Source: an uncultured Negativicutes bacterium (lineage in GTDB: Bacteria; Bacillota; Negativicutes; JBAXTZ01). From it: a stretch of 46,447 nucleotides of DNA. The stretch covers positions 1 through 46,447 of the forward strand of contig CAVRJL010000011.1 of the NCBI GenBank assembly GCA_963721525.1, written 5' to 3'. The notes beneath the pieces are model-generated. The model ran no database searches. It saw only the letters and a program-made list of their open reading frames with translations, and was not told the origin of the DNA. Positions within the stretch are counted from its first letter, which is position 1. Each line of letters begins with the position of its first letter. The position numbers and the translations under genes are program-made. Below, one piece after another: positions 43,913 to 44,971 of this stretch.

Positions 43913-44971
43913 CTATCGAATAATCAACTTTAGAAGATCAACTATTCTATTTGAATATCCCCATTCATTATCGTACCAACTTATAATTTTAAATAATCTT
44001 TTTTCGTCTCTCAAATTATTTTGTCTTGTAGCTAAACTATCGTATATCGAAGAACGATCATCATGAATAAAATCAGATGACACCAATTCTTCATCTACAT
44101 ATCCAAGTATTCCTTTTAAATAAGTATCCGAAGCTTGCTTAATTAGAAAATCTATTTCTTCAATTGATGAATCGCGCGTAGTCGTAAAAGTTAATTCAAT
44201 AACAGAACCTGCAATTATAGGCACTCTAAAGGACATACTCTCTATTTTCCCTTTTACTTGAGGAATAACTTCGCCTACAGCTTTAGCTGCTCCTGTTGAC
44301 GAAGGAACAATATTTATAGCCGCTGCTCTACCCCCACGCCAATCTTTTTCTGAAGCTCCATCTACTAGCTTTTGAGAAGCGGTATAAGCATGTATTGTAG
44401 TCATTAACCCTTTTTCAACGCCTATTCCTTCTCTTAAAAGAACATGTATTATAGGCGCTAAACAATTTGTTGTACAAGATGCATTTGATAACAAATGATG
44501 AGTACTTTTGTCATATTCATTTTCATTGATACCTATAACAATTGTTTTAACCTCTCCTTTGGCAGGAGCAGTTATAATGACCTTTTTCGCTCCAGCTTCT
44601 ATGTGCCCTTTTATCGTTTCACTATCAGTAAATAGCCCTGTTGCTTCTACTACTAAATCTACTCCATACTTATCCCAAGGTAAATCAATAAGTGATTGGG
44701 TTGCGCACACGCAATGAATCTCATAACCGTCCACTATTAAAATATCACTTTCTTTTCTATCAGTAGAACTTTTTTTTGTATCTACTTTATGGCTGAATTT
44801 GCCTTGAATCGAATCATATTTTAATTGATAAGCAAAATACTCCGCATTAGTTGAAATATCTACGACCGCCACAACATCAAATTTTTTACCGAGAAGATTT
44901 TGATCACAAATAGCACGAAATACTAAACGTCCAATCCTACCAAATCCATTTATTCCAACTTTTATTGCCAT
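43913..44971 (-). CDS. gap: type I glyceraldehyde-3-phosphate dehydrogenase (glycosomal/Treponema-like subtype)
   Basis: [30 protein letters not shown] and [10 protein letters not shown] motifs, plus subtype-specific insertions. Confidence 0.97.

Follow-up and report, generated by a model that had tools for sequence, protein, structure and literature searches.

A probable old, family-level replacement of gapA by a kinetoplastid- and spirochaete-type GAPDH gene in the glycolytic operon of a small Negativicutes family

Using profile searches, gene trees, topology tests and comparisons of gene order, our work here describes a real, old, family-level replacement of glyceraldehyde-3-phosphate dehydrogenase (GAPDH) in the Negativicutes, an event of a kind that is already known. 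The gene, gap, lies on the minus strand at 43913..44971 of the window, the stretch of 46,447 nucleotides of contig CAVRJL010000011.1 (assembly GCA_963721525.1) that was analysed, and encodes a class I phosphorylating GAPDH of 352 residues whose sequence is of the kinetoplastid-glycosomal/spirochaete subtype. We consider it probable that the native gapA was replaced once, long ago, in the ancestor of a small family, and likely that the donor was a bacterium. On this account a subtype gap from a bacterial donor would have replaced the native gapA in the family ancestor, ROK-gap would have taken the place of cggR-gapA, the complete 5′ part of the operon, in a single step or in two, and the new pair would have been inherited vertically in the family thereafter; the 26–28% divergence of the window protein from its relatives would then be due to fast evolution across the whole of a reduced, AT-rich genome.

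The protein carries both the Gp_dh_N and the Gp_dh_C domain and scores 412 bits in a profile search with TIGR01534, against a curated cut-off of 367. C166 and H194, which we take to be the catalytic cysteine and histidine, and D38, presumably the NAD-type aspartate of the Rossmann fold, are invariant across 14 aligned rows; because these residues are kept and pfk, fba and pyk are present in the genome, the product is predicted to be an NAD-dependent GAPDH that performs the ordinary sixth step of glycolysis. A search of 177,635 PDB sequences returned four top matches at 511–524 bits and a fifth at 342. Two of the top four carry the label glycosomal, and all four chains (1gyp, 1a7k, 1k3t and 2x0n) are, we assume, trypanosomatid; they have the same insertions, S-loop and catalytic numbering as the window protein, and the alignment with 1gyp runs without gaps over residues 3–349 (347 residues). 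Compared with the ordinary GapA of two class relatives (L014 and L009), the protein has seven insertions (4, 1, 8, 1, 1, 1 and 4 residues, 20 in total), every one of them common to kinetoplastid and subtype bacterial proteins, and its S-loop departs from the KDLRRARA of those relatives and matches the kinetoplastid and subtype bacterial proteins. By these sequence comparisons the protein belongs to the kinetoplastid-glycosomal/spirochaete subtype; the first-pass annotation had called the kinetoplastid-glycosomal/Treponema subtype from five quoted segments, all of which recur letter for letter in the open reading frame, and that call is borne out. Unlike the kinetoplastid glycosomal enzymes, the window protein is encoded in a bacterial operon and is only 63–66% identical to them. 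A glycosomal GAPDH proper was considered and rejected, since the protein lacks a PTS1-like C-terminal tripeptide, ending in LIIR where kinetoplastid GAPDH rows mostly end in AKL/SKL-like tripeptides, and falls outside the 12-row kinetoplastid clade.

Downstream of gap, on the same strand and in the same order as in class relatives, follow pgk (42653..43831), tpiA (41893..42675, with a true start probably at about 42651), gpmI (40349..41893) and eno (38954..40240, its start likely being the GTG at 40240, in an open reading frame listed to 40306). A perfect 16-bp tandem repeat of 4 copies (40274-40337) lies between gpmI and the likely start of eno. FastTree analyses group Pgk with the host class, in a clade of 18 class rows (support 96), and GpmI with the family relatives (support 100), and the nearest rows to Eno are class relatives. 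The first-pass annotation had described these neighbours as Bacillota-type, which stands for Pgk, GpmI and Eno but not for TpiA, whose tree gives no clear placement. It had also proposed that the GAPDH tree be set against those of the neighbours, and here the GAPDH tree conflicts with the Pgk, GpmI and Eno trees, on a row set without Elusimicrobiota, Euglena, diplonemids, named Treponema or eukaryotic cytosolic GapC.

On its other side gap adjoins a gene that the first-pass description of the locus did not include, encoding a ROK-family protein and likely transcription regulator (45058..46197, minus strand; the start was set at an ATG four codons inside the listed open reading frame 45058-46209). 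It occupies the place of the cggR of class relatives, most of which have an ordinary gap before pgk and in which CggR adjoins gap in 18 of 27 short loci. CggR was found in none of the three family genomes by a search that recovered it in both controls. The ancestral synteny is therefore kept on the pgk side, whereas upstream cggR is not found and ROK stands in its place, and the earlier description of a gene swapped in place is borne out on the first side only. Counterparts of the ROK gene are present in the family relatives (L111, 7434-8579; L112, 10444-11589), and in both G001 and G002 the genes past it are unrelated to glycolysis. Seven orthologous proteins match at E 1e-30 or better, and their source labels, where given, read Negativicutes or Bacillota; at that threshold no homologue was found outside the family clade, a 151-genome sample of the class yielding, apart from the family, generic ROKs at most (1e-29 or weaker), and the pairing of ROK with gap was found in the family only. 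With no homologue beyond the family clade at that threshold, the ROK protein was discarded as a tracer of the donor. Contigs of equal length suggest that two further family-clade proteins, P0003 and P0008, are also encoded beside such a ROK gene. The substitution of a family-specific ROK, a putative regulator, for CggR is the locus's own testable oddity.

A promoter-like site with 11 of 12 consensus matches lies just upstream of gap (45007..45035, minus strand). The scan that yielded it is by itself no evidence, as it returned 59 sites against 47 ± 8 in shuffled sequence; both G001 and G002 preserve the −10 hexamer with the bases that follow it. The site is overlapped by an inverted repeat (45012-45032), which was rejected as a ROK operator, being conserved in neither relative.

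The subtype gene is a trait of the family, which is sampled by three genomes only. Its counterparts in the two relatives, G001 and G002, are 72% identical to it, and the order ROK-gap-pgk-tpiA-gpmI is found in all three genomes. Across the class, a match at E 1e-105 or better was obtained in 3 of 401 genomes, each a member of the family, and the best non-family match among 41 relatives reaches 1.3e-95; of the widespread vertical inheritance in the host lineage that the first-pass annotation had named as an alternative, inheritance within the family (3/3) is thus seen, but not inheritance across the class (0/398). Of 409 rows, 6 contain the motifs KYGVDLV and E[IV]HCV, and each of these belongs to the family clade. 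The gap at 43913-44971 is the sole GAPDH found in the window genome, and no ordinary class I GAPDH was found in G000 (the window genome), G001 or G002, genomes that are 81, 97 and 98% complete. The gene also looks native in composition: its GC3 is 0.187, the mean over 414 genes of the genome being 0.207 ± 0.087, and among 121 genes of similar size 93% have a codon use farther from the genome average, while in G001 and G002 its GC3 is 0.40 and that of its neighbours 0.37–0.47. Long residence fits this tracking of two very different genome compositions. Because the gene is family-wide, with shared motifs and host-like GC3, recent transfer into the window genome is excluded.

In G001 a second GAPDH Pfam match was read and is an archaeal-type class II-like protein (L315 28-2306, on G001:C1); a divergent pgk comes after it, apart from the main operon. 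G002 has a similar weak Pfam match. Class II GAPDH in bacteria is treated in PMC6543838. In another class member (G005, locus L024) the GAPDH nests among Rikenellaceae proteins (98), with gpmI and not pgk adjoining, and by its sequence is a further, separate replacement in the class.

Our trees place the family within the subtype and leave the backbone of the subtype open. The query used to gather kinetoplastid rows came from a metagenome locus with an AKL end. Once loci repeating proteins already present had been dropped, 409 rows made up the full set, and hand-chosen sets of 102, 49, 43, 45 and 46 rows served the slower analyses. In the careful LG+G4 tree, which was not fully settled (bootstrap correlation 0.96) and whose support values are rough, an 84-row subtype clade that holds kinetoplastid and spirochaete proteins stands apart from GapA at 100/100, and it unites the window protein with rows from Trypanosoma, Leishmania and Neobodo (P0133, P0136, P0148 and P0230). 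The window protein clusters with those of G001 and G002 and with P0003 and P0008 at 98/95; the kinetoplastids form their own clade of 12 rows at 100/96, with the window protein outside. The family pairs weakly with Clostridia-labelled proteins (87/47) and is nested in no spirochaete group in the best trees. The quick trees were less firm: under PMSF (49 rows, open forks) the window protein did not join the family clade, and under LG+G4 the window-family node reached 84 or below.

AU tests were run on 43 rows under LG+G4 and then, for those topologies and guided by the free tree, under PMSF (p values are given in that order); a second seed gave near-equal likelihoods for four constrained searches. 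Grouping of the family with the ordinary class GapA is rejected (0.001 and 0.0004), which upholds the claim of the first-pass annotation of a foreign origin relative to the class. Also rejected is the union of the family with one large spirochaete group (0.038 and 0.021), and PMSF alone rejects that of the window protein and the kinetoplastids (0.089 and 0.033). Not rejected are the unions of the family with kinetoplastids (0.16 and 0.058), with Brevinematales (0.15 and 0.10) and with another spirochaete group (0.30 and 0.12), and the union with Clostridia stands at 0.72 and 0.58. With weak support, the Clostridia-labelled proteins come out nearest to the family, and more than one donor phylum is compatible with the tests.

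Beyond the class, the subtype is widely distributed. The best single BLAST matches to the window GAPDH are Brevinematales spirochaetes at 74%, and named matches at 70–74% come from Brevinematales, Clostridia, Kiritimatiellae, Victivallales, Fibrobacter, Bacteroidetes and Oligoflexia. The subtype was found in 75 of 201 genomes of the spirochaete phylum sample; in the planctomycete phylum sample 15 of 151 pass the threshold, 6 of them falling within the core clade, 8 within the sister clade and 1 next to the core clade. Among 399 scored genomes of the Clostridia class sample three have it, in each case as a solitary gene, pgk being absent for about 6 kb around it. In the Bacillota sample 3 of 400 other genomes match, all belonging to one family (f54), in which 22 of 31 genomes carry the subtype (21 whole, 1 partial). 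There the gene sits at the gapA position between cggR and pgk-tpi-gpmI-eno (G505, G740 and G418), and cggR adjoins it in 19 of 20 short loci. The f54 GAPDH groups with a clade of spirochaete and Bacteroidota proteins (95/94), and a single acquisition common to f54 and the host family was rejected (AU p below 1e-15 under both LG+G4 and PMSF). The f54 locus thus shows a two-sided form of the same kind of event, from a different source: both families have a subtype gap at the gapA position, f54 keeping cggR and the host family having ROK. The Pgks of f54 mostly form their own clade, but in two f54 genomes (L146, G505:C91; L287, G1169:C195) a spirochaete group takes in the Pgk with support 100, a second displacement within that operon. 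At L272 (G1066) and L273 (G1133) the subtype GAPDH lies in open frames of 761–762 residues, probably GAPDH-PGK fusions.

One reading that departs from a replacement takes the family to be an early holder of the subtype, which would have arisen in, or very early entered, the Bacillota (the host family and some Clostridia) and spread to spirochaetes, PVC bacteria and Euglenozoa. When the window protein and the far outgroups are left out, the family does branch first, apart from the remaining 39 subtype rows (96/91), and groups labelled Clostridia follow; an even older presence, or the family as donor, would agree with this placement. AU tests tolerate a root on the family (p 0.45 and 0.22) or on the family plus Clostridia (0.46 and 0.51). 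Yet the root shifted between analyses, and all five forced roots (on the family; the kinetoplastids; the kinetoplastids plus P0217; the family plus Clostridia; and a spirochaete group plus f54) survived at p 0.15–0.62, for which reason we do not take the basal position of the family as shown. The subtype is moreover rare in both the Bacillota (3/400) and the Clostridia (3/399) samples, its nearest outgroup clade is PVC/Myxococcota, and the class keeps cggR-gapA, and we regard an early holder as unlikely. It is equally doubtful that the family has the earliest-branching subtype GAPDH and that its lower glycolysis was also rewired from CggR to a ROK repressor; were this so, the trypanosome enzyme would derive from a gene moving repeatedly among anaerobic bacteria, with Bacillota near the base, and non-spirochaete bacteria would be nearest to Euglenozoa. 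The manner of the replacement can also be read in another way, since displacement in place and later re-assembly are indistinguishable where no ancestral gene lies upstream and synteny is one-sided. Under re-assembly, gap would have landed elsewhere or come with ROK as a cassette, cggR-gapA would have been lost, and ROK-gap would later have moved before pgk. The absence of an ancestral upstream gene, with cggR not found in 3/3 and non-glycolytic genes beyond ROK in G001 and G002, is compatible with such a course, as is the solitary subtype gene of the Clostridia sample. We nonetheless judge it improbable: gap lies exactly at the gapA position of the class, directly before pgk-tpi-gpmI, f54 demonstrates two-sided replacement, and no ROK-gap pair is found outside the family.

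The first-pass annotation had favoured a transfer from a community rich in spirochaetes or protists, and a direct gift from a spirochaete or a kinetoplastid-like protist, in a gut-type community and tied to the origin of the euglenozoan enzyme, would agree with the Brevinematales best matches, with the AU tests, in which neither protists nor Brevinematales are formally rejected as the sister of the family, and with a genome whose size and base composition (769 kb, 31% GC) could be those of a protist symbiont. Set against it, the same gene is in the same place in relatives with larger genomes; the window protein is less like kinetoplastid GAPDH than are its family relatives, Brevinematales or Fibrobacter; the kinetoplastids form a clade of their own, whose union with the window protein is rejected under PMSF, as is that of the family with the large spirochaete group under both models; and the protein has no PTS1-like end while exact short pieces of the window occur in three peat runs. 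As a recent event such a transfer is largely refuted, and overall we hold it to be very improbable. The donor community itself finds no backing here, the event predating the family, the subtype occurring in many phyla, the Clostridia pairing being weak (87/47) and the only habitat-labelled reads coming from peat. Scarcely credible, finally, is an assembly or binning artefact in which a spirochaete gap was joined to a Bacillota contig: the assembly is a metagenomic one of 16 contigs, gap lies about 1.5 kb from a contig end and no read piece bridges gap and pgk, but the same order is present in two other assemblies, the protein groups with theirs, the base composition is host-like and the gene is the sole GAPDH found in the genome. 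A single ancient replacement in the family ancestor is therefore the reading that we retain.

The first-pass annotation had linked the window gene to the origin of the euglenozoan enzyme. Its bearing on that question is small: few of the subtype members compared are less kinetoplastid-like than the window protein (63–66%, against 72–79% for its family relatives, 76–80% for Brevinematales and 78–82% for Fibrobacter), and no root was rejected. Other sequences say more. Many bacterial proteins are 81–83% identical to the kinetoplastid query, and the sister clade of the subtype, which is bacterial, scores 408–476 bits to the query against 342 or less for any non-kinetoplastid PDB chain. Because this bacterial sister clade outscores the non-kinetoplastid chains, the sequences favour a bacterial ancestry of the subtype group and a bacterial source of the glycosomal enzyme, a point that rests on these other sequences and not on the window gap. 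Three bacterial-looking proteins (P0217, P0209 and P0235) were sister to kinetoplastid GAPDH in several trees, at 98/94 in one. Spirochaete GAPDH is reportedly related to that of Euglenozoa (Figge 1999; Figge and Cerff 2001), and the later study is said to have argued for spirochaete-to-Euglenozoa transfer. As far as these comparisons indicate, the idea of spirochaetes as the special donor of the glycosomal enzyme is weakened, because the grouping of kinetoplastids with the large spirochaete group is rejected (0.016 and 0.007). PMC1919352 describes the Treponema pallidum GAPDH as related to euglenozoan homologues and cites an earlier proposal of eukaryote-to-prokaryote transfer; the spirochaete enzyme is of the same subtype as the window protein, named Treponema sequences not being among the rows compared. 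The history of GAPDH is called very complex in PMC1665464, and PMC11976288 notes that mixed sister groups hinder identification of GAPDH donors; Supplementary Fig. 7 of the latter may already show the present clade.

The host of the window gene appears to be an unusual bacterium. Its metagenome-assembled genome, 81% complete and with 31% GC, has 16 contigs that total 769 kb, whereas G001 and G002 measure 2.4 and 3.4 Mb, with 44–46% GC at their gap loci; an Omp85 gene is present, and the source labels on family-clade proteins read Negativicutes or Bacillota bacterium. Size at this completeness, base composition and long protein branches (end branches of 0.46 for the window gap, 0.50 for Pgk and 0.65 for GpmI) lead us to infer a strongly reduced Negativicutes-type genome, possibly that of a symbiont and probably host-dependent; no published description of such a reduced lineage was found in the literature searched. 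Four sequencing runs contained 5–9% of the sequence words, and short exact pieces turned up in one metatranscriptome without a label and in three metagenomes from peat; two of the pieces lie within gap. As the only labelled source, peat is a weak hint to habitat, and no gut community is indicated. No exact read piece in the same runs bridges the gap-pgk junction, and for that reason the linkage of the two genes rests on two other assemblies. Elsewhere in the window, a CTP synthase-like gene (pyrG, 4643-6259) is split into two frames (5843-6259 and 4643-5758) with a break near 5843-5870, which may mark a pseudogene, slippage or an assembly error, and a perfect 24-bp tandem repeat of 6.6 copies occupies 46290-46447, where the contig ends.

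Foreign GAPDH genes within native glycolytic clusters have precedents. Xenologous gene displacement in situ was reportedly described by Omelchenko et al. in 2003, and Takishita and Inagaki are said to have reported, in 2009, foreign GAPDH in Clostridium thermocellum and C. cellulolyticum, that of C. thermocellum presumably located among native glycolytic genes. As in those clostridia, the window holds a foreign GAPDH that heads a native glycolytic cluster in a Bacillota genome; in contrast to them, the subtype and the host lineage are different and the regulator has also been exchanged, ROK for CggR. A definition of xenologous gene displacement is given in PMC1274311, and PMC12965863 describes CggR as the repressor of the lower glycolytic genes in B. 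subtilis. Set beside the Bacillota cggR-gapA-pgk-tpiA-gpmI-eno operon, the window has the same gap-pgk-tpiA-gpmI-eno order but no cggR that we could find, with gapA replaced by the subtype. In the literature searched, outside which the older primary papers mostly lie, we found no published report of this subtype in Negativicutes. The case adds one clean example to the known mobility of GAPDH genes, and with f54 it brings to at least two the number of times that the subtype independently took the gapA position in Bacillota. The “Treponema/Euglenozoa” GAPDH is, in this light, a bacterial subtype of many phyla, with a bacterial sister clade.
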